From Halarcobacter sp. (lineage in GTDB: Bacteria; Campylobacterota; Campylobacteria; Campylobacterales; Arcobacteraceae), in NCBI GenBank assembly GCA_963676565.1, contig OY781089.1, forward strand, positions 640,001 to 704,000: a stretch of 64,000 nt of DNA, given 5' to 3'. Numbering within the stretch: the first letter of the stretch is position 1; each line of letters starts with the position of its first letter. A program made the translations under genes and the position numbers. This document shows positions 45,189 through 64,000 of the stretch, one piece after another. The notes beneath the pieces are model-generated. The model searched no databases, had not been told where the DNA came from, and saw nothing but the letters and a program-made list of their open reading frames with translations.

Positions 45189-46043
45189 TTAAACTCCATT
45201 ATATTTATCTATTAAAGTTTGATTTGAACCAAAAGCATTAATATCATATTCTTTTAATGATTTTTCGATATCAACATTATAAGTAATATGTTCAAAAAAT
45301 TCATATTTTTCTATTAATCCTTTAAATTTCCTCTTTCCTATATTCCCTAAACAATGATAAAACAATAATTCAAGTTCATTTTCTGTAAATTGAGCTCTAA
45401 AGATATTTATATATCTTTGTTTTGAATCAATATCACTATCATCTATAAATTTTATAATCTGGTATATTTGAGAAAAGTAACTACCAGTTAAACACTCATG
45501 ACTATTATTAAATTTCTCATAATCTCCTAAATATTGTAGTTTAAGCTCATCTAAAAAACTATGAATTGTTTCATGATAAGTCATTTCTCTTATTATAAAA
45601 TTGGTTGTAGGACTACCATTTTCAAAACCATCTACTCTTTCTCTACGACTAACTGTAAAGTTAGATTTTAATTCAATAAAAATACTTATAAGTTGGAAAA
45701 AAGTATTTTCAAATATCTGTAATTTTGTTGCTTTGTTTTGTAGTTTTAAAGATTTTGCTTGTTTTTTTTGTGCTGTCACAGTCTTTTTTAATTCTTTACG
45801 GGTTGCTTTTAATTCATCTGATTGAAGTTTAATTGTATATAGTAATGCAATCAATGCAAGAAAAGCAAGAATTGGATTTAATGTACCTCCAATAAAATCT
45901 CCAAAATTTGCAAATTTATTTATTTCAGTCGGAACAGTATCTCCAAATTTTTTTGTAAAAAAAGCTAATACTCCCCCAATAAAAAGTATGGCAATTATAA
46001 AAATTATAGTTAAAAAAATTAATGTATTATCATTTTTCTTCAT
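45189..46043 (-). CDS. Putative phage abortive-infection protein (putAbiC-like) with two N-terminal TM helices
   Basis: FGDFIGGTLNP TM motif, coiled coil, FENTFFQL, YFSQIYQIIKFID and YINIFRAQF...EL.LLFY segments. Confidence 0.7.
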   Translation of the reverse strand: MKKNDNTLIFLTIIFIIAILFIGGVLAFFTKKFGDTVPTEINKFANFGDFIGGTLNPILAFLALIALLYTIKLQSDELKATRKELKKTVTAQKKQAKSLKLQNKATKLQIFENTFFQLISIFIELKSNFTVSRRERVDGFENGSPTTNFIIREMTYHETIHSFLDELKLQYLGDYEKFNNSHECLTGSYFSQIYQIIKFIDDSDIDSKQRYINIFRAQFTENELELLFYHCLGNIGKRKFKGLIEKYEFFEHITYNVDIEKSLKEYDINAFGSNQTLIDKYNGV

Positions 46044-51199: not shown

Positions 51200-52111
51200 T
51201 TGCCGTTTACTTTAAAAAAATTTGATGCCATAAAAGATAAAAAAATACAACTATTTATGTTGCAAGACTTGGGCTACAAGCCCCGTCCTGCCAATCGTTT
51301 GATAGCAAGATCAAGGGTTTTTGACTCAAACCATGTTCCCTATGAAATCAATGAATTAATAAAAGAAGATGTCATCTACATTGCTTTGTTTGAGGGGCAT
51401 ACAAGGGGCTTAAGACCTTTACATATTTTTAAAGATTTTGCAATCTTTGATAAGCCTTCAAATTTAATGATTCATCCTATTTCAAAAAACACTCCTTATT
51501 CACTTTTGGATGAGATTAGATACCATTTAGGAGAGAGTGCAAACCAAGCTCACAGAATAGATGCAGAGACATCAGGACTAGTATTAGTGGGAAAAAATGA
51601 GAAGGTTACAAATAAACTTGCAACCATGTTTGAGAACAAAGAGTATAAAAAATCTTATCTTGCAATAGTTGAAGGAAAAATAGAAAAAGAAGAGTTAATT
51701 GATAAAAATTTAAAAAAAGAGGGGAAGGCTATTGGTGTTAGAATGGCAACTTGCTCAAAAGATGAGGGTAAAGAATCAATTACAAAGGTAAAACCTTTAA
51801 AATACAACGAGAAAAAAGATATTACATTAGTTGAAGTTACTCCAATAACAGGTAGACAACATCAAATAAGAGTACATCTATACTCAATTGGGCATAAAAT
51901 ATTAGGTGACCCAATATATGGAATAGATGATGATATTGCAGAAGATTATCTAAATAAAAAGCTTAGTGATGATGATAGAATTAAAGCTTCTAAATCCCAT
52001 AGGTTATGGTTGCAAGCAAATTACCTTGAATTTACTTACGATAAAGTAATTTATAAAATCTATTCTAAAAATAAAGATATATATAATGAGTTTAGCTCTT
52101 TAAGAAGCTAA
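51200..52111 (+). CDS. RluA-family pseudouridine synthase
   Basis: HRIDAETSG and TGRQHQIRVH...I.GD..Y motifs. Confidence 0.92.
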   Translation: MPFTLKKFDAIKDKKIQLFMLQDLGYKPRPANRLIARSRVFDSNHVPYEINELIKEDVIYIALFEGHTRGLRPLHIFKDFAIFDKPSNLMIHPISKNTPYSLLDEIRYHLGESANQAHRIDAETSGLVLVGKNEKVTNKLATMFENKEYKKSYLAIVEGKIEKEELIDKNLKKEGKAIGVRMATCSKDEGKESITKVKPLKYNEKKDITLVEVTPITGRQHQIRVHLYSIGHKILGDPIYGIDDDIAEDYLNKKLSDDDRIKASKSHRLWLQANYLEFTYDKVIYKIYSKNKDIYNEFSSLRS

Positions 52112-52420
52112 CTCACAATTAAAACAATTTGATATATCTTTACATGTAGAACAAGCTGGTGCAGTTTTACCTATAGAATCGTAAAGATATTTTTTCCATC
52201 TTACATCTTTTGGTTTTATTTTTGCCAAAGATGGAAAGTTGTTTGTCATTAACCTATTCATCTCTTTTCTACTGATTAAGCCTAAATCAGAGTACAAATG
52301 CCCCATTCTTAATGAAGTTTTAGCAATCCAAGGCGCCAATGTATTTTTTGCATAATCATCATCTGCATTTTTTTGAAGTAAGCTTAATACTTCAACTTCC
52401 ATCATTTCAAATTCACTCAT
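52100..52420 (-). CDS. nifQ: NifQ molybdenum-donor protein (compact form)
   Basis: HLYSDLGL.SR.E...LM...FP.LA......RWKKYLY segment plus C-terminal Cys cluster; nif context. Confidence 0.85.
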   Translation of the reverse strand: MSEFEMMEVEVLSLLQKNADDDYAKNTLAPWIAKTSLRMGHLYSDLGLISRKEMNRLMTNNFPSLAKIKPKDVRWKKYLYDSIGKTAPACSTCKDISNCFNCELAS

Positions 52421-52437: not shown

Positions 52438-53436
52438 TTAAACTACATCACAATATTCAAGATCCATTCCCGCAGGTCTTGATAAATCTTTATTTCCGCC
52501 AATATAAAGATTTTTTAAATTCATTAACTCCTCAATTGAATCAGGTAAAACGCTAATTTCATTATCCTCTAAATCCAATTCTTCAAGCTTTTCAAGGTTT
52601 CCTAAATCATTTGGTAGCGAAACTAGAGAATTGGAACTTACACTTAAACTTGTAAGTTTTTTTAATTGACAAATTTCATTGGGTAGATAACTTAGGTTAT
52701 TGTTATCTAAAATCAATATTCTTAAATCTTCTAATTTACTAATGTTAAAGTTTAAAGATTCAAGGTTATTATCACTTAAATCAAGTTTTATCAACATATC
52801 ATGGGATTCCAACGAGGGTAGGTTTTTTAGATGATTCCCTTCTAAAAGTAGAGTTTCAAGCTCTTCAATACTAGATATTGATTCTGGAAGAAAACTTAGA
52901 TTATTAAAAGATAGATCTAAATAATATAAAGATTTCATTTTAGAAAAAGAATCGGGTAATTCCTCTAGTTCATTGGTATCAAAAGATAGATACAACAACT
53001 TTGTAAGATTTCCTAAACTAGGGCTAACATTTTTTATTTTATTAGCAGCTAGGGTTAATCTAGTAAGTGAACTAAGATTGTAAATCTCTTCAGGTAATGT
53101 TTCAAGTCTATTTCCATTTAGATTTAAAATCATAAGTTTCTCTAGATTGCCAATAGACGAGGGTAATTCTTCAATAAGGTTGTTTTCACATTGAAGATTT
53201 TTTAGATTTTTTAATTGTCCAATTGAATTAGGTAATTTAGAAAGTCTATTGTTTGAAAGTTTTAAAACACTTAAAGATTTTAAAACATGAATAGACTCAG
53301 GTAATTCACGAATTTTTTTCTTAGTTAAATCTAAATGGGTCATCATAAAAATATCATCATCATTTGTTGAAATGGTAGATTCTAATCTATTAGTTCTAAC
53401 CCATCTTACAAAATCATCAATATCACTCATGCTCAT
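52438..53436 (-). CDS. Leucine-rich-repeat protein (12-13 repeats of about 23 aa)
   Basis: Repeating LxxLxLxxNxLxxLPxxIxxL pattern. Confidence 0.92.
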   Translation of the reverse strand: MSMSDIDDFVRWVRTNRLESTISTNDDDIFMMTHLDLTKKKIRELPESIHVLKSLSVLKLSNNRLSKLPNSIGQLKNLKNLQCENNLIEELPSSIGNLEKLMILNLNGNRLETLPEEIYNLSSLTRLTLAANKIKNVSPSLGNLTKLLYLSFDTNELEELPDSFSKMKSLYYLDLSFNNLSFLPESISSIEELETLLLEGNHLKNLPSLESHDMLIKLDLSDNNLESLNFNISKLEDLRILILDNNNLSYLPNEICQLKKLTSLSVSSNSLVSLPNDLGNLEKLEELDLEDNEISVLPDSIEELMNLKNLYIGGNKDLSRPAGMDLEYCDVV

Positions 53437-55910: not shown

Positions 55911-56189
55911 TTAAATTTTAAGTATCTCTAAACTATGGATTTTATTTAAATCCTCTTTTTCTAAAGAATCATATGAGTATACAAAACAACAAGGTTTGTC
56001 TTTTATTGTTTTTTCAATTTCCCAAAAAGTATCAAGGGAATCAACTAAGTAGATTTTATCTGCACGTAAAGATTTCAAAGGAAAACCAATAGCTCCATGA
56101 CAGGTAGTTGCTGGGTATAGTTCTAATAATTCACTGTTAATAGATATAGGACCATTACCCTTTAGAAGTAAAACTTTTGGATTTTTCAT
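55911..56189 (-). CDS. Hypothetical protein downstream of nifB
   Basis: 92-aa ORF filling the nifB-nifV gap; no family recognised. Confidence 0.6.
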   Translation of the reverse strand: MKNPKVLLLKGNGPISINSELLELYPATTCHGAIGFPLKSLRADKIYLVDSLDTFWEIEKTIKDKPCCFVYSYDSLEKEDLNKIHSLEILKI

Positions 56190-58048: not shown

Positions 58049-58642
58049 ATGAAATATCCAAAGTTTTTCGATGAAATTGAAACAATAAAATTAAAAGATG
58101 ACTTATCAGCAGTTCTTGGTTCATTAGAGGATGGAGTTGTAGAGTTTTCATATTTAGATATTGTAAAAAGTGCAGGGCACTCTTGCCCAACAGTAGCTGG
58201 AGCATATCTAATGACTCAAATTGCACTAAAGAATTTATACAAAAATGAAACTCCAAAAAGGGGAGAGATTTTTGTAAGTTTTAAAGAGGATTTACTAGAG
58301 GGTACTGCAGGAGTTGTTGCAAATGTTGTTTCTCAAATTACTGGGGCAACGGAGTTTTTAGGATTTAAAGGCTTAAATGGTAAGTTCACTAGATATGGTT
58401 TGATGCAATTTAATGATAAAATCACAACTAGTGCAAAGTTTACAAGAATAGATACAAAAGAATCATTGGAATTAATCTACAATCCAAGTATAATACCACC
58501 AGATGAAAAAATACCACAATTAATGGAAAAACTAATACAAGATAAAGCTTCTCTTGAAGAGAAAAAAGAGTTTGCGAAACTTTGGCAAGAACGAGTTGAA
58601 AAAATATTTAGCAATAAAAATAGGGTGATAAAAATATTATGA
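58049..58642 (+). CDS. FmdE-like domain protein
   Basis: GHSCPTVAGAY motif and V.SQITGA segment. Confidence 0.7.
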   Translation: MKYPKFFDEIETIKLKDDLSAVLGSLEDGVVEFSYLDIVKSAGHSCPTVAGAYLMTQIALKNLYKNETPKRGEIFVSFKEDLLEGTAGVVANVVSQITGATEFLGFKGLNGKFTRYGLMQFNDKITTSAKFTRIDTKESLELIYNPSIIPPDEKIPQLMEKLIQDKASLEEKKEFAKLWQERVEKIFSNKNRVIKIL

Positions 58643-58977
58643 CAGAAGAAAAATTTCAAAGTGAAATTGATACTCTAAATAGATTTTTTACAAAATATTG
58701 TAAAGATAAACATGAAAATCAAAAAAGTAAGCTTTATAAATTTGAGTATAAAAATCTTTCCTTTGAAACTTCTATTTCCCTTTGCGAGGAGTGTAATTCT
58801 CTAATCTCTTACTCTTTTGATAGATTAAAAGAATGTCCCCATGAAATAAAACCTAGATGTAGAAACTGTGAAAAACCATGTTATGAAAAAACTCAATGGA
58901 AAAGCTTGTCTAAAGTTATGAGATATAGTGCAATTAGATTAAATTTAGCAAAAAGAATAAAAAAAATATTTTCTTGA
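58639..58977 (+). CDS. YgbA-like (nitrous-oxide-stimulated promoter family) Cys-rich protein
   Basis: YC...H...CEEC..L..Y...RL..CP...KP.C..C..PCY......VMRYS pattern. Confidence 0.85.
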   Translation: MTEEKFQSEIDTLNRFFTKYCKDKHENQKSKLYKFEYKNLSFETSISLCEECNSLISYSFDRLKECPHEIKPRCRNCEKPCYEKTQWKSLSKVMRYSAIRLNLAKRIKKIFS

Positions 58978-58987
58978 CCTTAGTCTA
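58974..58987. promoter_or_regulatory. Degenerate Crp/Fnr box TTGAC-N4-GTCTA upstream of cytochrome c553
   Basis: One mismatch from the 57977 box consensus; centred about 61 nt upstream of the ATG. Confidence 0.45.
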
Positions 58988-59041
58988 TTTTTTTTCCACA
59001 ATTTTTTATTACAATTTTTAAACAATAAAAAAGGAGAAGAA

Positions 59042-59317
59042 ATGAAGAAAGTTTTACTTTTAAGTTCAGTGTTAGCATGTGTTGCTTTTGCAAATCCATA
59101 TGCAAAGTGTGTTGCATGTCATGGAGCAAATGGTGAGAAGGTTGCCTTAGGAAAGTCAAAAATCATTAAAGATATGACTAAACAAGAGATTGTAGATTCA
59201 TTAAAAGGTTACAAAGATGGATCTTACGGAGGACCTATGAAAGCTCTTATGAAAGGTCAAGTTGTTTCTTTATCAGATGCTGATATCCAAGCTATTGCAG
59301 ATAAAATTGGTAAATAA
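59042..59317 (+). CDS. Cytochrome c553
   Basis: Signal peptide, CVACHG and YGGPMKALMKGQ. Confidence 0.92.
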   Translation: MKKVLLLSSVLACVAFANPYAKCVACHGANGEKVALGKSKIIKDMTKQEIVDSLKGYKDGSYGGPMKALMKGQVVSLSDADIQAIADKIGK

Positions 59318-59399: not shown

Positions 59400-60641
59400 T
59401 TAATTCATAGTAATTTCTATCATCTTACCATTTAAAATTTCACCGAATTCTACCCCATAATTATAGCATTGGTTTAGCTCCTCTTTTGTAGGGATTAATT
59501 TTATTTTCATAGACTCCATTGGAGGCACTCTAAAACTTAATGATTTTAGTCTATGGTTAATCATATCAACAGCTTCACCACTCCACCCATATGAACCAAA
59601 GGCACCACCAGTTTTCCCCCGTTTTTCTAGATACATCATACAAGAGAGTAAATCCCAAACTGGTTTAGGAGCATCGGAGTTAATTGTTGGCGATCCTATT
59701 AAAATTCCATCACTTTCTTCTAATATATTTATCATGTTTGACTCTTCAAGTGAGGTCAAATCATACACATTTGCTATAATCCCCTCAACACTTTCTGCTC
59801 CATCGAAAATTGCTTCAGCCATATCTCTAGTATTTTTATAGCTTGTGATATAAAAAATTGATAAAATCTTATTTCCATGACTTATCTCTTTATAATCTTT
59901 TTGACTCCAACTTCTATAATACTCCATATATTTATAGGGTTTTTGTCTTAATATTGGTCCATGAAGTGGTGCAATCATTTCTATACTTAACTTATCATAC
60001 AACTTCAAAGCATTTAAAACATAAGATTTAAAGGGTCTCATAATATGATCATAATAATATTTAAAAGCATAAAAGAAATCACTAACTTGGTCATCAAACA
60101 ATCTTTTATCATGGTAATGGCTTCCAAAAACATCCCCTGAAAACAATAAACAATCCTCTTCTACAAAAGAACTCATTGTTTCAGGCCAATGTAAATAAGG
60201 AGTTGTTAAAAACCTAATTGTTTTATTTCCAAGTTTTAAACTTTTGTTTGTCCAAACAGTTTCAAAATCGATATTTTCCCTATGGGTAATTGCTTTTAAC
60301 ATTGATGTTGCTTGCGGTGAAATTAAAACTTTCACATCATCATTTACTCTATTCATTAGTTCTGGTATTGCTCCAGCATGATCTGGTTCCATATGGTGTA
60401 AAATCACATATTTTATCTCATCATATGAACACAAGCTTTCTATTTTTTTAAAAAATTCTGCTTGAAACTCTACTTTTACGGTGTCAACTATTATTACACC
60501 TTCATCAGTTTTTATCAAATAAGCATTATATGATGAACCATTTGCAGTTTTCATTATAATATCAAAGGTTCTAATATCAGGGTCAAAGGCACCAATAAAA
60601 TATATATCGGGTGCAATTTCTATTGGCTTATTTGTATCCAT
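59400..60641 (-). CDS. fprA: Class A flavodiiron protein (O2/NO reductase)
   Basis: SYNAYL, HMEPDH, HWPE, SGDVFG and PLHG diiron ligands; flavodoxin domain with GSPT and FGSYGWSGEA. Confidence 0.92.
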   Translation of the reverse strand: MDTNKPIEIAPDIYFIGAFDPDIRTFDIIMKTANGSSYNAYLIKTDEGVIIVDTVKVEFQAEFFKKIESLCSYDEIKYVILHHMEPDHAGAIPELMNRVNDDVKVLISPQATSMLKAITHRENIDFETVWTNKSLKLGNKTIRFLTTPYLHWPETMSSFVEEDCLLFSGDVFGSHYHDKRLFDDQVSDFFYAFKYYYDHIMRPFKSYVLNALKLYDKLSIEMIAPLHGPILRQKPYKYMEYYRSWSQKDYKEISHGNKILSIFYITSYKNTRDMAEAIFDGAESVEGIIANVYDLTSLEESNMINILEESDGILIGSPTINSDAPKPVWDLLSCMMYLEKRGKTGGAFGSYGWSGEAVDMINHRLKSLSFRVPPMESMKIKLIPTKEELNQCYNYGVEFGEILNGKMIEITMN

Positions 60642-60657
60642 AATCTATCCATTTTTT

Positions 60658-61017
60658 TTATTTTGCTATTAATCTTCTCATCCAAATTGGTGGATTTTCT
60701 TGCATCTTAATTAAAGAGTTTAAAACATCTTCAATCTTTTCATTTTCACGGCTTGCTTGCATAGGAAAAATTTGACATTTCTTTACCATCATTGCAGCTT
60801 TTGGTCCTATTTGTTGAACATATAATATATCACTATCTTCTAGACACTCGATTTTATATGTAAGTTTTTCAATCTCATCATCAATCTCAAGTGAAGAATC
60901 AATAGATTTAACAAAAGTATATTCATCACCATGAATCTCATAAATATAAAACTCTTTACACCAACCAAAATGTTGATTAACGTGAATATTATCTTTTGAA
61001 GCAAATGCAATTCTCAT
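60658..61017 (-). CDS. nifX: NifX-family FeMo-cofactor carrier protein
   Basis: IAFASKD..HVNQHFG, IG..AA and PPIWMRR motifs. Confidence 0.8.
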   Translation of the reverse strand: MRIAFASKDNIHVNQHFGWCKEFYIYEIHGDEYTFVKSIDSSLEIDDEIEKLTYKIECLEDSDILYVQQIGPKAAMMVKKCQIFPMQASRENEKIEDVLNSLIKMQENPPIWMRRLIAK

Positions 61018-61985
61018 AATATAAATATCCTAACTCTTTCATCAATGATTTTTTGCATAGTGTCTGCAATCATTGTATATGTTCCAGTACTTGCAATAGA
61101 ACATCCAACACATGCACCTTGATAAGCTAATCTAATCTCAACTTCTGGCTCGCTTATATAATCAATTAAAACAATATTTCCACCATCTTTTAGAAGTATT
61201 GGTCTAACAAATCTATCTAAGGCATCGTTTATAATTTCTAATTGTTTTTCTTTTGTTTGCGCTCTAAAATCTGTATTTAATTCGCAGGCATCATTTAAAG
61301 GTTTGTCCATCCCTGTTAATTGTACATTTGCCATAGCATGACCATTTTGTGCAGCCTTTAACATACAATCAAATCCCTCTTTAACTAAATCAAGTTTTGT
61401 TCTATCTTGTAGTAAAATTAAGGCTAATCTAAAACAAGCTTGCGTATGGTTTTTAGCTACGGCCCTTCTAAAGTAGTCAATAGCTTTATTTAAATCTTCT
61501 TCTACCCCAATTTTTGTTTGATACATTAAAGCTAAGTTGAAATTTGCTGAGTCATTATCGTATTTACTCGCTTCTTCAAACCACTCTTTTGCTTTTGTAT
61601 AATCTTTTTGAACACCTTCACCTTTTAGATACATTAATCCAAGGTTTGCCATTGCTCTATCACTTTTTGTTTTTGCTTCCTCTTTCCAAATAGAAAGTGC
61701 TGTATCAAAATCTTTACTTTTGTATGCAGCTAATGCTTCTTTGTGTCTCATAAAATTTCTTCCTTCCCCTGGATTTGGAAGTTCTTTCCCCATCTCCAGT
61801 TGTTTATATATATGTTCTATTAAAAACTTATGGGCAAGTTCAACTGCTTCTTCGTAATCTTCACTTGCTGCTTTAATATCAAAATCTAAAAATTCAACTA
61901 AAAATGCATCACCAAGTTCATTTTCCCCACTATAACACTCAAAGGGATAATCTAAAGATGCATAATATTTTAAATCTTTTTCCAA
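61014..61985 (-). CDS. Fusion protein: HicB-like N-domain, Sel1 repeats, NifU/Nfu C-terminal Fe-S domain
   Basis: Y..L.YP...FLVEFLD...EEA...A...L......G.ELP.P; NLGLMY..GEGV.KD...A.EWF repeats; VRP.L..DGG...YQGACVGC. Confidence 0.8.
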   Translation of the reverse strand: MEKDLKYYASLDYPFECYSGENELGDAFLVEFLDFDIKAASEDYEEAVELAHKFLIEHIYKQLEMGKELPNPGEGRNFMRHKEALAAYKSKDFDTALSIWKEEAKTKSDRAMANLGLMYLKGEGVQKDYTKAKEWFEEASKYDNDSANFNLALMYQTKIGVEEDLNKAIDYFRRAVAKNHTQACFRLALILLQDRTKLDLVKEGFDCMLKAAQNGHAMANVQLTGMDKPLNDACELNTDFRAQTKEKQLEIINDALDRFVRPILLKDGGNIVLIDYISEPEVEIRLAYQGACVGCSIASTGTYTMIADTMQKIIDERVRIFIL

Positions 61986-61993
61986 AATAGTTC

Positions 61994-62374
61994 CTAAAAT
62001 TCTAATGGTTTATGTTCTAGTCTATCTTCCATACTAATAAGCTCTCTAAAAGGCCTTGGTTGATTCTCAGGAGAGAATATACCTTTTTTCTTATGAACTC
62101 TGATTTTATAAGTTCCTTCCTCATGGCCACTTAAATAGTAGTCATTAAACTCTTGAGTATAAGGCATATCCCAAGCTATAGCTCCTGGTGTAGGACAAAC
62201 GTCAAAACATTTTGGTACAGAACAATCTACACACTCTATACACTTTTCAGGTTTTACATATACATATTCTGCATCTTCAATGGGTGAATCATCTGCACTT
62301 ACAATCGCCGTTGCAGGGCATTCATCAACACATGAATCACAACTGATACATTCATCTGTAATAACTACTGCCAT
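61994..62374 (-). CDS. 2x[4Fe-4S] ferredoxin (FdxN-like) with C-terminal extension
   Basis: CISCDSCVDECP and CIECVDC...CFDVCP. Confidence 0.9.
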   Translation of the reverse strand: MAVVITDECISCDSCVDECPATAIVSADDSPIEDAEYVYVKPEKCIECVDCSVPKCFDVCPTPGAIAWDMPYTQEFNDYYLSGHEEGTYKIRVHKKKGIFSPENQPRPFRELISMEDRLEHKPLEF

Positions 62375-62377
62375 ATT

Positions 62378-62761
62378 TTACTCCTTAGAACCGCATGTGC
62401 AACTTGCACTACCTGAATCAAGTAGTGTTTTTGCATTATCCTTAGTTACAGCAATTGTTTCTTCATTTAAAAAGTTTTGGTAAATCTCATCAATTGAAAG
62501 AAAGTTCTTTTTTGAAGTGAATACTTTTACTTGCTCTTTATAAAGAGTATTAAATACACCTTCTCCCATATGATAAAAAATAGTGCTTGTAGCACCACTT
62601 TTTTTTACAAACATTGCTGTATCAGAACCGCTTCCACAACCATCATTTTTTTCAACTGTCATCTCTCCAGTTAAAGTATTTAAAAATGCAAAAAATGGTG
62701 CATTCCCATATAAATCTGAAATAGTTGTAGAACTACTTTTACTAAGTGGTATTGCTAACAT
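62378..62761 (-). CDS. NifB/NifX-family (FeMo-co/Fe-S binding fold) protein
   Basis: AIP...IS..YG.APFF, GCGSG and MGEG pattern; nif context. Confidence 0.75.
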   Translation of the reverse strand: MLAIPLSKSSSTTISDLYGNAPFFAFLNTLTGEMTVEKNDGCGSGSDTAMFVKKSGATSTIFYHMGEGVFNTLYKEQVKVFTSKKNFLSIDEIYQNFLNEETIAVTKDNAKTLLDSGSASCTCGSKE

Positions 62762-62905: not shown

Positions 62906-64000
62906 ATGGTAAATAAAAAACTAATTAGAGAACTATTAAGTGAAACTGCATGTTCACACAATAAGACTAAAAAATCTTCATGTGATAAACCAAAACCAGG
63001 GGCAACTTCTGGTGGTTGCGCCTTTGAAGGTGCTCAAATTGCATTATTTCCATATGCTGATGTTGTTCATCTTGTTCACTCCCCTTCAACTTGTATTGGT
63101 GCATCTTGGGAAACGAGACAAACTTTAACTTCCCACAAAGGGGAAAATAATACTGTAACAGGATATACAACAGATGTTAGTACAAATGATGTAATTTTTG
63201 GGGGAGATAAAAAATTAGAAGACTCAATTAATTATATAGTAGAACATAAAAATCCTAAGGGAATTTTTGTATATGAAACCTGCGTTACTGCAATGATAGG
63301 TGATGATATCGATAATGTTTGCAATAGAATGGAAACAAAACATGGCATACCTATTGTAGTTATTCACTCTCCTGGATTTGTAGGAGGTAAAAACTTAGGT
63401 TCAAGGCTTGGAGGTGAGTCTGTGCTTCATCAACTAATAGGAACAAAAGAACCTGAAGAGATACACCCATTTGGTATAAATTTAATAGGTGAATATAATG
63501 TAACAGGAGATATGTGGCAATATACTCCAATTTTGGAAAAAATAGGTATCAAAATTGTTTCAACTTTAGCTGGAGATGGAAGAATTGAAAATATACAGAT
63601 GGCACATACTGCAAAATTGAATGTAATTGTTTGTGCTAAATCATTAATTAGTTTAACAAGAAAAATGCAAGAAAAATATGAAATCCCATATATATCTATT
63701 TCTTTTTACGGGAAAAGGGATACTACAAATGCTATTAGAAGTATTGTAAATGCCTTTGGAGATGAAGAATTAACTGCAAGGGCAGAGAAAGTAATCGCTG
63801 AAGAAGAAGCAAAATTAGAAGAAGCCTTAATCCCATATAGAAAAATACTTGAAGGGAAAAAAGCTATTTTAAATACAGGTGGAAATAAAACTTGGTCTAT
63901 AGCTTCAGCCTTACAAGATATTGGTATTGATGTTGTTGCAACAAGTGTAAAAAAAGCAACCTTAGAAGATAAAGAGATTTGTGCAAAATATGTTGATATT
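62906..64000 (+). CDS. nifE: Nitrogenase FeMo-cofactor scaffold NifE (partial, runs off the window; absent from the ORF track)
   Basis: Hand translation MVNKKLIRELLSETACSHN...PGATSGGCAFEGAQIAL...HLVHSPSTC...TCVTAMIGDD...PGFVGGKNLG...IGEYNVTGD...TGGNKTWS; AAGGAG RBS. Confidence 0.92.
   Translation, partial: MVNKKLIRELLSETACSHNKTKKSSCDKPKPGATSGGCAFEGAQIALFPYADVVHLVHSPSTCIGASWETRQTLTSHKGENNTVTGYTTDVSTNDVIFGGDKKLEDSINYIVEHKNPKGIFVYETCVTAMIGDDIDNVCNRMETKHGIPIVVIHSPGFVGGKNLGSRLGGESVLHQLIGTKEPEEIHPFGINLIGEYNVTGDMWQYTPILEKIGIKIVSTLAGDGRIENIQMAHTAKLNVIVCAKSLISLTRKMQEKYEIPYISISFYGKRDTTNAIRSIVNAFGDEELTARAEKVIAEEEAKLEEALIPYRKILEGKKAILNTGGNKTWSIASALQDIGIDVVATSVKKATLEDKEICAKYVDI

Follow-up and report, generated by a model that had tools for sequence, protein, structure and literature searches.

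A nif-linked Sel1–Nfu protein of Halarcobacter with an optional HicB-like N-terminal domain and a candidate nested start

The DNA analysed here (the window) is a stretch of 64,000 nucleotides (nt) from contig OY781089.1 of a Halarcobacter sp. genome (GenBank assembly GCA_963676565.1, positions 640,001 to 704,000), and the gene in question is a 323-codon frame on its minus strand that lies among nitrogen-fixation (nif) genes and encodes a HicB-like N-terminal domain (hereafter the head), Sel1 repeats and an Nfu domain. Coordinates of the features are given in table 1. The frame opens with TTG at 61985 and closes with TGA at 61014–61016; AGGAA is located 5 nt 5′ of the TTG, and since relatives begin at the aligned position (with ATG in six relatives from other genomes and with TTG in L058, which is 93% identical), this start is supported. 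The gene occupies third place in a compact run of five genes on the minus strand, which are separated by gaps of 3, 8 and 16 nt and one 4-nt overlap with a nifX-like gene. The overlap reads ATGA (61014..61017), the ATG of the NifX-like gene lying across the stop of the 323-codon gene, which suggests that the two are translationally coupled. A full-length AlphaFold2 (AF2) model (mean predicted local distance difference test score (pLDDT) 90.2, predicted template modelling score 0.72) contained the head, about four helix-pair repeats at residues 75–222 and an alpha/beta Nfu domain, with the CxxC loop as its least confident block (pLDDT 60). Foldseek returned 37 matches to this model at E ≤ 1e-3; the rows listed were Sel1/tetratricopeptide-type repeat proteins, and the three-domain combination was present in none of the PDB entries listed.

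The Sel1 repeats were identified above the curated threshold by PF08238 (E 1.2e-20, 73.6 bits against a cut-off of 30.7), by 23 sequence matches to Sel1-type PDB entries (phmmer E down to 1.4e-36) and, in the Foldseek search of the full model, by matches to LceB (8sxq, E 4e-8) and HcpC (1ouv, E 1.1e-6). Residues 252–319 matched PF01106 (E 9.6e-13, 48.5 bits against a cut-off of 27), and the domain also exceeded the cut-off in the search of the whole genome. Of the TIGR02000 (NifU) profile only positions 183–286 of 290 were matched (E 2.8e-7, 30.2 bits against a cut-off of 273.3), and of TIGR03341 (NfuA) only the Nfu part, positions 108–172 (18.9 bits against 269.35). Residues C292, C295, G290, G294, T300 and T302 did not vary among 50 aligned long forms, which carry the head, or among 30 mixed forms. 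Three frames in the genome carry PF01106: the 323-codon gene, a stand-alone frame of 95 amino acids and a NifU-sized frame of 327 amino acids. The last two are located at G000:C1:1356724-1356921 and 1583446-1583655, both more than 0.6 Mb from the nif region, so that the 323-residue protein is the only Nfu protein of that region. Nfu domains hold a [4Fe-4S] cluster bridged by the CxxC pairs of two subunits and pass it to apo-proteins, and Sel1 repeats are protein-binding solenoids or scaffolds. As judged from sequence comparison, the Sel1 repeats and the Nfu domain together are the conserved core of the protein family.

An earlier note on this DNA, made from the sequence by eye, had proposed a HicB-type pattern for the N-terminus. 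Several results weigh against that assignment: Pfam gave nothing for residues 1–80 even at E ≤ 10, PF15919 included, so that no Pfam HicB threshold was reached; Foldseek gave no match of the head model to the PDB at E ≤ 1e-3, with HicB and double-stranded RNA-binding domain (dsRBD) entries at the top of its list; and the Z-scores obtained with VIA-align (6.5–7.8) fall in the range which that program terms middling. Because Pfam was silent on this region, other tests of the pattern were needed. Heads of relatives gave sub-threshold Pfam matches to PF15919 (E 0.032 for P0007 and 0.17 for L024) and to PHD_like (E 0.0059). A profile of nine head sequences (A1) was compared with PDB sequences and matched three HicB antitoxins (E 0.023, 0.026 and 0.29), query residues 27–72 aligning with HicB residues 14–60, the terminal P-x-P included. 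The same profile was run with HMMER against 1.84 billion representative proteins and matched 133 at E ≤ 1e-3; of the 132 searched with Pfam, 56 carried PF15919 (HicB_lk_antitox), 53 PF05534 (HicB) and 33 UPF0150 (counts may overlap), and Sel1 was found in only six and NifU in only five. P0130 links the two families, as its residues 3–78 match the head profile (E 1.3e-9) and its residues 14–81 match positions 1–65 of PF15919 (E 1.5e-11). Other top profile matches carry the ribbon-helix-helix (RHH) module of HicB C-terminal to the matched region.

An AF2 model of residues 1–80 (pLDDT 88.4) consisted of a short helix, three strands and a long helix, followed by an ELPNPGEG linker. When this model was aligned with 48,161 representative chains using VIA-align, TTHA0281 ranked first (Z 7.8 over 72 residues) and HicB entries 6g1c, 6u0i, 6g1n and 5yrz took ranks 2–5 (Z 7.4, 7.3, 6.8 and 6.5, respectively); the HicB-type fold is called because one family fills the top five places, and not from the Z-values themselves. 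By these profile and model comparisons the head is a true homologue of the HicB N-domain that has diverged from it, and the three-domain reading of the earlier note, its HicB-type fold included, was borne out by Pfam, profiles and structure searches. A homodimer prediction with two copies of residues 1–80 of A4 scored 0.01 against a mark of 0.42 and is evidence in neither direction. The median ratio of nonsynonymous to synonymous substitution rates (dN/dS) was 0.22 for the head and 0.17 for the core (121 usable of 351 pairs from 27 gap-free genes), which indicates that the head is selected as protein; it is under purifying selection and functional where it is kept.

The head is not a constant part of the family. 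Among 80 loci (the best 80 of 147 relatives from a scan of GTDB species representatives), 53 encode long forms with the head and 27 encode short Sel1–Nfu forms of about 242–256 amino acids; the long count takes in L046, which is cut by a contig end, and L041, which contains an in-frame TAA. In L041 (5992-6969, from an Arcobacter metagenome-assembled genome (MAG)), this single TAA at about codon 94 (KDF*KA) interrupts an otherwise intact 323-codon gene; the gene may be a pseudogene, the TAA may be an error of sequencing, or the cell may naturally make only what follows the internal region. A hidden Markov model (HMM) of the head found no copy at E ≤ 1 in any frame of the short-form loci, within about 6 kb; the possibility that short forms are split genes with a separate hicB-like open reading frame (ORF) upstream was therefore discarded. 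The stand-alone head matches P0121 (90 amino acids) and P0123 (86 amino acids) diverge abruptly past the domain, as fragments left by truncation or a frameshift would.

Head presence was mapped on an unrooted maximum-likelihood tree of the core (98 rows, including six pairs or groups of identical sequences that the two genome collections had in common; neither L046 nor the Sel1-only locus L027 was included). At least 13 changes were required, at least seven of them forced by well-supported branches; the mean with shuffled labels was about 30, and none of 500 shuffles was as low as the observed value. The long form L093 and the short form L094 are 94% identical over 630 nt upstream, and a clean indel of some 170 nt, which equals the head, separates them. 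In L078 the last 15 or so codons of the head region survive in frame in degraded form, and the leader of L067 appears to retain remnants of both head ends; these remnants point to loss of the head rather than gain in the two lineages, and gain may have occurred elsewhere in the unrooted tree. The heads of the two deepest clades are homologous at 24–36% identity. Head presence was not correlated with the upstream ferredoxin gene, long forms occurring with and without it. The fold of the head is HicB-like and the fusion recurs in 53 of 80 loci, so that the grounds on which the earlier note would have given up its reading do not hold. It is not the one fixed three-part fusion that the earlier note had framed: the head is an optional add-on to the Sel1–Nfu core, with at least 13 gains or losses.

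The gene also contains the in-frame ATG at 61751..61749 (Met79), preceded by GGAAGGAAG, to which the earlier note had drawn attention as a possible start for a shorter product, and the comparison of orthologues strengthens that idea. Short forms start exactly at the Met aligned with Met79 (27 of 80 loci). In the Arcobacter-type long forms shown, the 15 nt before the internal ATG read GA[AG]GG[AGT]-NNN-NNN-TT[TC], encoding Glu-Gly-x-Arg-Phe, and in the leaders of short forms a stop codon is followed by nearly the same nucleotides (aatGGAGTAAGATTT-ATG in L063 and gaaGGAGTAAGATTT-ATG in L061); the same leader homology was seen in L089 versus L042 and in L054 versus L051. The Shine–Dalgarno sequence of the short forms is thus homologous to the Glu-Gly codons just 5′ of Met79 in the long forms, and for this reason a shorter isoform of the long gene is plausible. 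Independently, in the Sulfuricurvum-type clade, AGGAG or GAGGAG stands 5–7 nt before an internal ATG-GAA-GCA/GAA, and the internal ATG of these long forms is the start codon of their short-form relatives. Duplex energies were calculated with a generic anti-Shine–Dalgarno sequence taken from general knowledge and not from the 16S rRNA of this genome. On that scale the internal site of the 323-codon gene gave −5.9 kcal/mol versus −3.9 at the TTG start, and the means over 44 genes were −5.5 kcal/mol at the internal site versus −3.9 at the annotated start.

Relatives of the protein were collected by a word-indexed protein search, which gave 365; the best 120 were all 318–333 amino acids long with 99–100% coverage and 70–94% identity and came, where named, from Arcobacter, Halarcobacter, Aliarcobacter and Marinarcus. 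Database labels of the relatives, where named, were NifU family, SEL1-like repeat, TPR repeat and beta-lactamase. The four nearest ESM-Atlas clusters combine Sel1 and NifU, with Campylobacterota as the commonest phylum. In a survey of 301 Campylobacteria genomes (match threshold E ≤ 1e-20; nifH called when over its cut-off), 20 genomes were matched, one of them (G246) by a Sel1-only protein, and the Sel1–Nfu gene was present in 19 of 32 nifH-positive and 0 of 269 nifH-negative genomes. By record title, the 80 loci are nearly all from Campylobacterota (Arcobacteraceae, Sulfurimonas, Sulfuricurvum, Sulfurospirillum and Sulfurovum), the exceptions being one MAG labelled Pseudomonadota and a few titles without a phylum. 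At least one nif-type neighbour was found in 80 of 80 loci, and in 17 of 19 loci of the first Campylobacteria set; a NifB gene was a neighbour in 26 of the 80, and the counts for the other neighbours are given in table 1. The MAG labelled Pseudomonadota (L106) has a short form nested in Sulfuricurvum sequences (branch length 0.02 to L103), probably a matter of taxonomic label or binning and not of gene transfer. One Sulfuricurvum MAG has two long-form copies on two contigs (L096 and L098), identical over the aligned core columns; the nif region may be duplicated, or the second copy may stem from assembly or binning.

Table 1. Positions of the gene, its parts and its neighbours in the window.
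Feature	Position	Strand	Basis
Whole gene, 323 amino acids: HicB-like N-domain, Sel1 repeats, Nfu domain	61014..61985	-	ORF list, Pfam
N-domain (head), residues 1-78, HicB/UPF0150/TTHA0281-type fold	61752..61985	-	AF2 model, VIA-align, profile searches
Internal Shine–Dalgarno-like GGAAGGAAG, Gly-Glu-Gly-Arg codons, 7 nt 5′ of internal ATG	61759..61767	-	sequence
Internal in-frame ATG (Met79), start codon of short-form orthologues, possible second start	61749..61751	-	sequence, alignments
Sel1-repeat region, residues ~80-222, ~4 helix-pair repeats	61320..61748	-	PF08238, model helices 75-222, Foldseek
Nfu (NifU C-terminal type) domain, residues 252-319	61029..61232	-	PF01106; C-terminal part of TIGR02000
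CxxC motif Cys292-Val-Gly-Cys295 (YQGACVGC), presumed [4Fe-4S] ligands	61101..61112	-	sequence; invariant in relatives
NifX/NafY-like, first operon gene, Nitro_FeMo-Co domain	62378..62761	-	PF02579 E 1.3e-6; in 65/80 loci
2x[4Fe-4S] ferredoxin, 8 nt upstream of the start of the 323-codon gene	61994..62374	-	Fer4 families; YfhL-type E 9.8e-12; in 27/80 loci
NifX-like, downstream of the 323-codon gene	60658..61017	-	PF02579 E 2.5e-16; homologue in 79/80 loci
Flavodiiron protein, last operon gene, metallo-beta-lactamase-like and flavodoxin domains	59400..60641	-	PF19583 E 2.3e-28, PF00258 E 1.4e-12; in 56/80 loci
nifE, divergent from the operon, runs past the window end	62906..64000	+	PF00148 E 8.9e-79; in 54/80 loci

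The downstream NifX-like gene also matched TIGR02663 (nifX; E 2.2e-28) with 99.1 bits, under the cut-off of 112, and the flavodiiron protein probably shields the nitrogenase machinery from oxygen or nitric oxide. A NifB–NifX fusion, nifV and nifQ lie within 10 kb of the operon, and nifH lies 23 kb beyond the window end. Between nifB and the operon (58049..59317, plus strand) are FmdE-like, YgbA_NO and small c-type cytochrome genes, the YgbA_NO gene (nitrous-oxide-stimulated promoter family) overlapping the FmdE-like gene by 4 nt. A leucine-rich repeat (LRR) protein of 332 amino acids (52438..53436, minus strand; Pfam LRR_14 E 2.1e-46, with NCBIfam matches to LRR effector families) is encoded between nifQ (52100..52420) and a GNAT-like gene plus nifV, and has no obvious role in the nif cluster. 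An ORF of 92 amino acids between nifV and nifB (55911..56189, minus strand) gave no Pfam or NCBIfam match. A 284-residue protein encoded beside ribonucleotide reductase genes (45189..46043, minus strand) carries a putative abortive-infection domain (putAbiC, E 7.3e-24).

Nitrogenase cannot be assembled without many [4Fe-4S] units, which go to NifB, NifEN, NifH and NifDK; in model organisms these are delivered by NifU and NifS, and many diazotrophs are without nif-specific copies of the two. NfuA of Escherichia coli and Azotobacter vinelandii acts late, as a carrier of [4Fe-4S] clusters and not as a scaffold. Like NfuA (TIGR03341), from which the carrier role is known, the 323-residue protein has a C-terminal Nfu domain with CxxC after a non-catalytic domain of the client-targeting kind; unlike NfuA, it has Sel1 repeats in place of the degenerate A-type domain, a nif-linked gene and the additional HicB-like head. 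With NifU (TIGR02000) it shares the C-terminal Nfu-type domain, whereas the IscU-like N-terminal and the central ferredoxin-like [2Fe-2S] domains are lacking and a separate NifU-sized gene is located elsewhere in the genome. Residues of about 10–78 share fold and homology with HicB antitoxins (6hpb, 6u0i, 5yrz, 6g1c and 4p78) and with TTHA0281 (2dsy)/UPF0150 (Z 6.0–7.8 over 61–72 aligned residues); unlike HicB antitoxins, the protein has no C-terminal RHH or helix-turn-helix (HTH) domain, its genome gave no HicA match, it is fused to an Fe–S carrier domain and it is encoded in a metabolic operon. The repeat fold is that of the Sel1 proteins HcpC (1ouv), LpnE (6deh) and LceB (8sxq), which are secreted or periplasmic; in this respect the 323-residue protein, with its cytoplasmic Fe–S domain, would differ from them.

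NifU is reported to supply [4Fe-4S] clusters to Nif proteins (PMC11605450, PMC13382767). Paenibacillus polymyxa WLY78 is reported to be a diazotroph without nifUS that uses housekeeping Fe–S systems and NfuA-type carriers (PMC8038749). The P. polymyxa and Halarcobacter cases are alike in a nif cluster without a dedicated NifU/NifS pair and in the implication of an Nfu-type carrier, and they differ in phylum, in carrier architecture and in the position of the carrier gene, which in Halarcobacter is inside the nif cluster. No paper on the HicB-like/Sel1/Nfu architecture was found in a full-text literature search, which left most subscription journals uncovered. The architecture of the protein, which is already present in databases under generic names, newly varies a known type of protein, the Nfu carrier that bears a targeting domain, and does not amount to a system of a new kind.

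Taking the known properties of Nfu domains and Sel1 repeats together with the strict nif linkage, we consider that the 323-codon gene probably encodes a nif-dedicated, late-acting Nfu-type [4Fe-4S] carrier, targeted by its Sel1 repeats and equipped with a dispensable accessory head. The earlier note had arrived at a targeted Fe–S carrier with a domesticated antitoxin fold, and that suggestion fits the nif linkage; together with the domain assignments, the lack of an adjacent HicA gene and the internal ATG it has stood, while a toxin encoded elsewhere and the fixed fusion have not. From the observed domains, linkage, patchy head and start-site homology we infer the following scheme of how a cluster is bound and passed on, which clients receive it, whether the internal start is used and what the head does. 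Two C-terminal Nfu domains would hold one [4Fe-4S] cluster between their CxxC motifs, its source being the housekeeping NifU/NifS system, whose genes lie far off in the genome. The Sel1 repeats would be the adaptor through which the carrier docks on its clients in nitrogenase maturation, with the co-transcribed NifX-type proteins, the ferredoxin, NifB, NifEN and NifH as candidates. The Sel1–Nfu core would be the conserved and essential part, and the head an accessory module, detached from toxin–antitoxin function and most likely providing an extra protein-binding or self-association surface. Both a 323-residue and a 245-residue product may be made from the long gene, because it keeps the Shine–Dalgarno sequence and ATG of the short form in frame; if the short product were already made, the repeated tolerance of head deletion would be explained. 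One result of the survey counts against a general need for such a carrier: in 13 of the 32 nifH-positive genomes nothing matched at E ≤ 1e-20, and nitrogen fixation in Campylobacteria therefore does not always depend on the protein.

Other functions have been considered for the whole protein and for its head. The protein may not be primarily a cluster donor, and its Sel1 repeats, as protein-binding scaffolds, could serve as scaffold or chaperone for FeMo-cofactor traffic between NifB, NifX and NifEN, with the Nfu domain as a structural element or a sensor of cluster or redox state; the suggested translational coupling to nifX, the two flanking genes with Nitro_FeMo-Co domains and the NifX-like neighbour in 79 of 80 loci would suit that role, but the CxxC and the surrounding GxCxGCxxxxxT are invariant, as for a cluster-binding carrier, and we regard this alternative as unlikely. 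We give less credit still to the head as an RNA-binding module with a dsRBD-like fold, by which the protein would be tethered to nif mRNAs or the ribosome, a very improbable role: dsRBDs and ribosome hibernation factors occupy ranks 7–50 of the VIA-align search (Z 4.8–6.0) and many Foldseek rows, but all dsRBDs (Z ≤ 6.0) rank below the HicB and TTHA0281 entries and are only 5–16% identical to the head, and the sequence-profile matches are to HicB families, not to dsRBD. The homology of the head to HicB N-domains is the ground for supposing that it still binds, in the manner of an antitoxin, a HicA-like RNase encoded elsewhere and so couples Fe–S or nitrogen status to growth arrest, as the earlier note had also entertained. 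This is largely refuted and retains almost no credence: a search with PF07927 (HicA) matched seven of 14 control genomes but nothing at E ≤ 0.01 in the genome of this bacterium, which is a single contig and 99.97% complete, and close relatives have the head deleted without other local change. Neither HicA nor any other toxin-family small ORF stands next to the gene, the neighbours in the ORF list and by Pfam being NifX-like, ferredoxin and flavodiiron genes, just as the earlier note had stated for HicA. Residues 80–323 are Sel1 and Nfu, leaving no C-terminal RHH or HTH DNA-binding domain. Because that domain is missing and HicA is found neither adjacent nor in the genome, the gene is not a toxin–antitoxin element.

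With regard to the internal start, production of two isoforms from nested starts is plausible, has comparative support and is, on the evidence of the nucleotide alignments, about an even question. Evenly poised too is the alternative that only the 323-residue protein is made, the Shine–Dalgarno-like site and Met79 being a relic or a protein constraint and the deletions having happened to recruit this Met. Several points weigh against a functional internal start and favour a single product: the internal site has a median rank of only 27.5 among 314 codon positions (about the top 9%) and is not unique; 25 of 44 genes contain another in-frame ATG with an equally good or better upstream match, and 19 contain none; the genes are purine-rich; conservation of Glu-Gly-x-Arg-Phe-Met could be a purely protein-level constraint; and the dN/dS of 0.22 for the head means that the first start is certainly used. 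Against a single product, the Shine–Dalgarno and ATG pair is kept in two clades whose N-domains are only 24–36% identical, the internal site pairs better with the anti-Shine–Dalgarno sequence on average, the first start is weak (−0.2 to −2.9 kcal/mol) in seven of nine Sulfuricurvum-type genes scored, and the 13 or more transitions between forms would be easier if the short product were already functional. A bolder extension of the carrier reading, which we put forward as tentative and on present evidence doubtful, is that two nested-start isoforms of the carrier have been kept across dozens of Campylobacterota species: the antitoxin domain of the long form would gate or redirect cluster delivery, by partner binding or self-association, the short form would be the constitutive carrier, and the internal start would make the head disposable and so account for its many independent deletions.

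Campylobacterota are important diazotrophs of sulfidic and marine habitats, and the Sel1–Nfu family would mark a distinct solution of this phylum, in which an Nfu carrier with a Sel1 adaptor is encoded in the nif cluster; the identities of its clients would extend the parts list for transfer of the nitrogenase pathway to other hosts. Were gating by two isoforms to prove true, it would give the first description of a HicB toxin-binding domain co-opted for metallocofactor assembly, together with a Sel1-targeted Nfu carrier specific for nitrogenase. The head shows clearly that an antitoxin fold has been recruited by a protein outside toxin–antitoxin systems, and the candidate nested start with at least 13 gains or losses offers a natural experiment on the adding and stripping of accessory domains. 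What is most interesting about the family is that a domesticated antitoxin domain has been lost again and again around a putative nested start.

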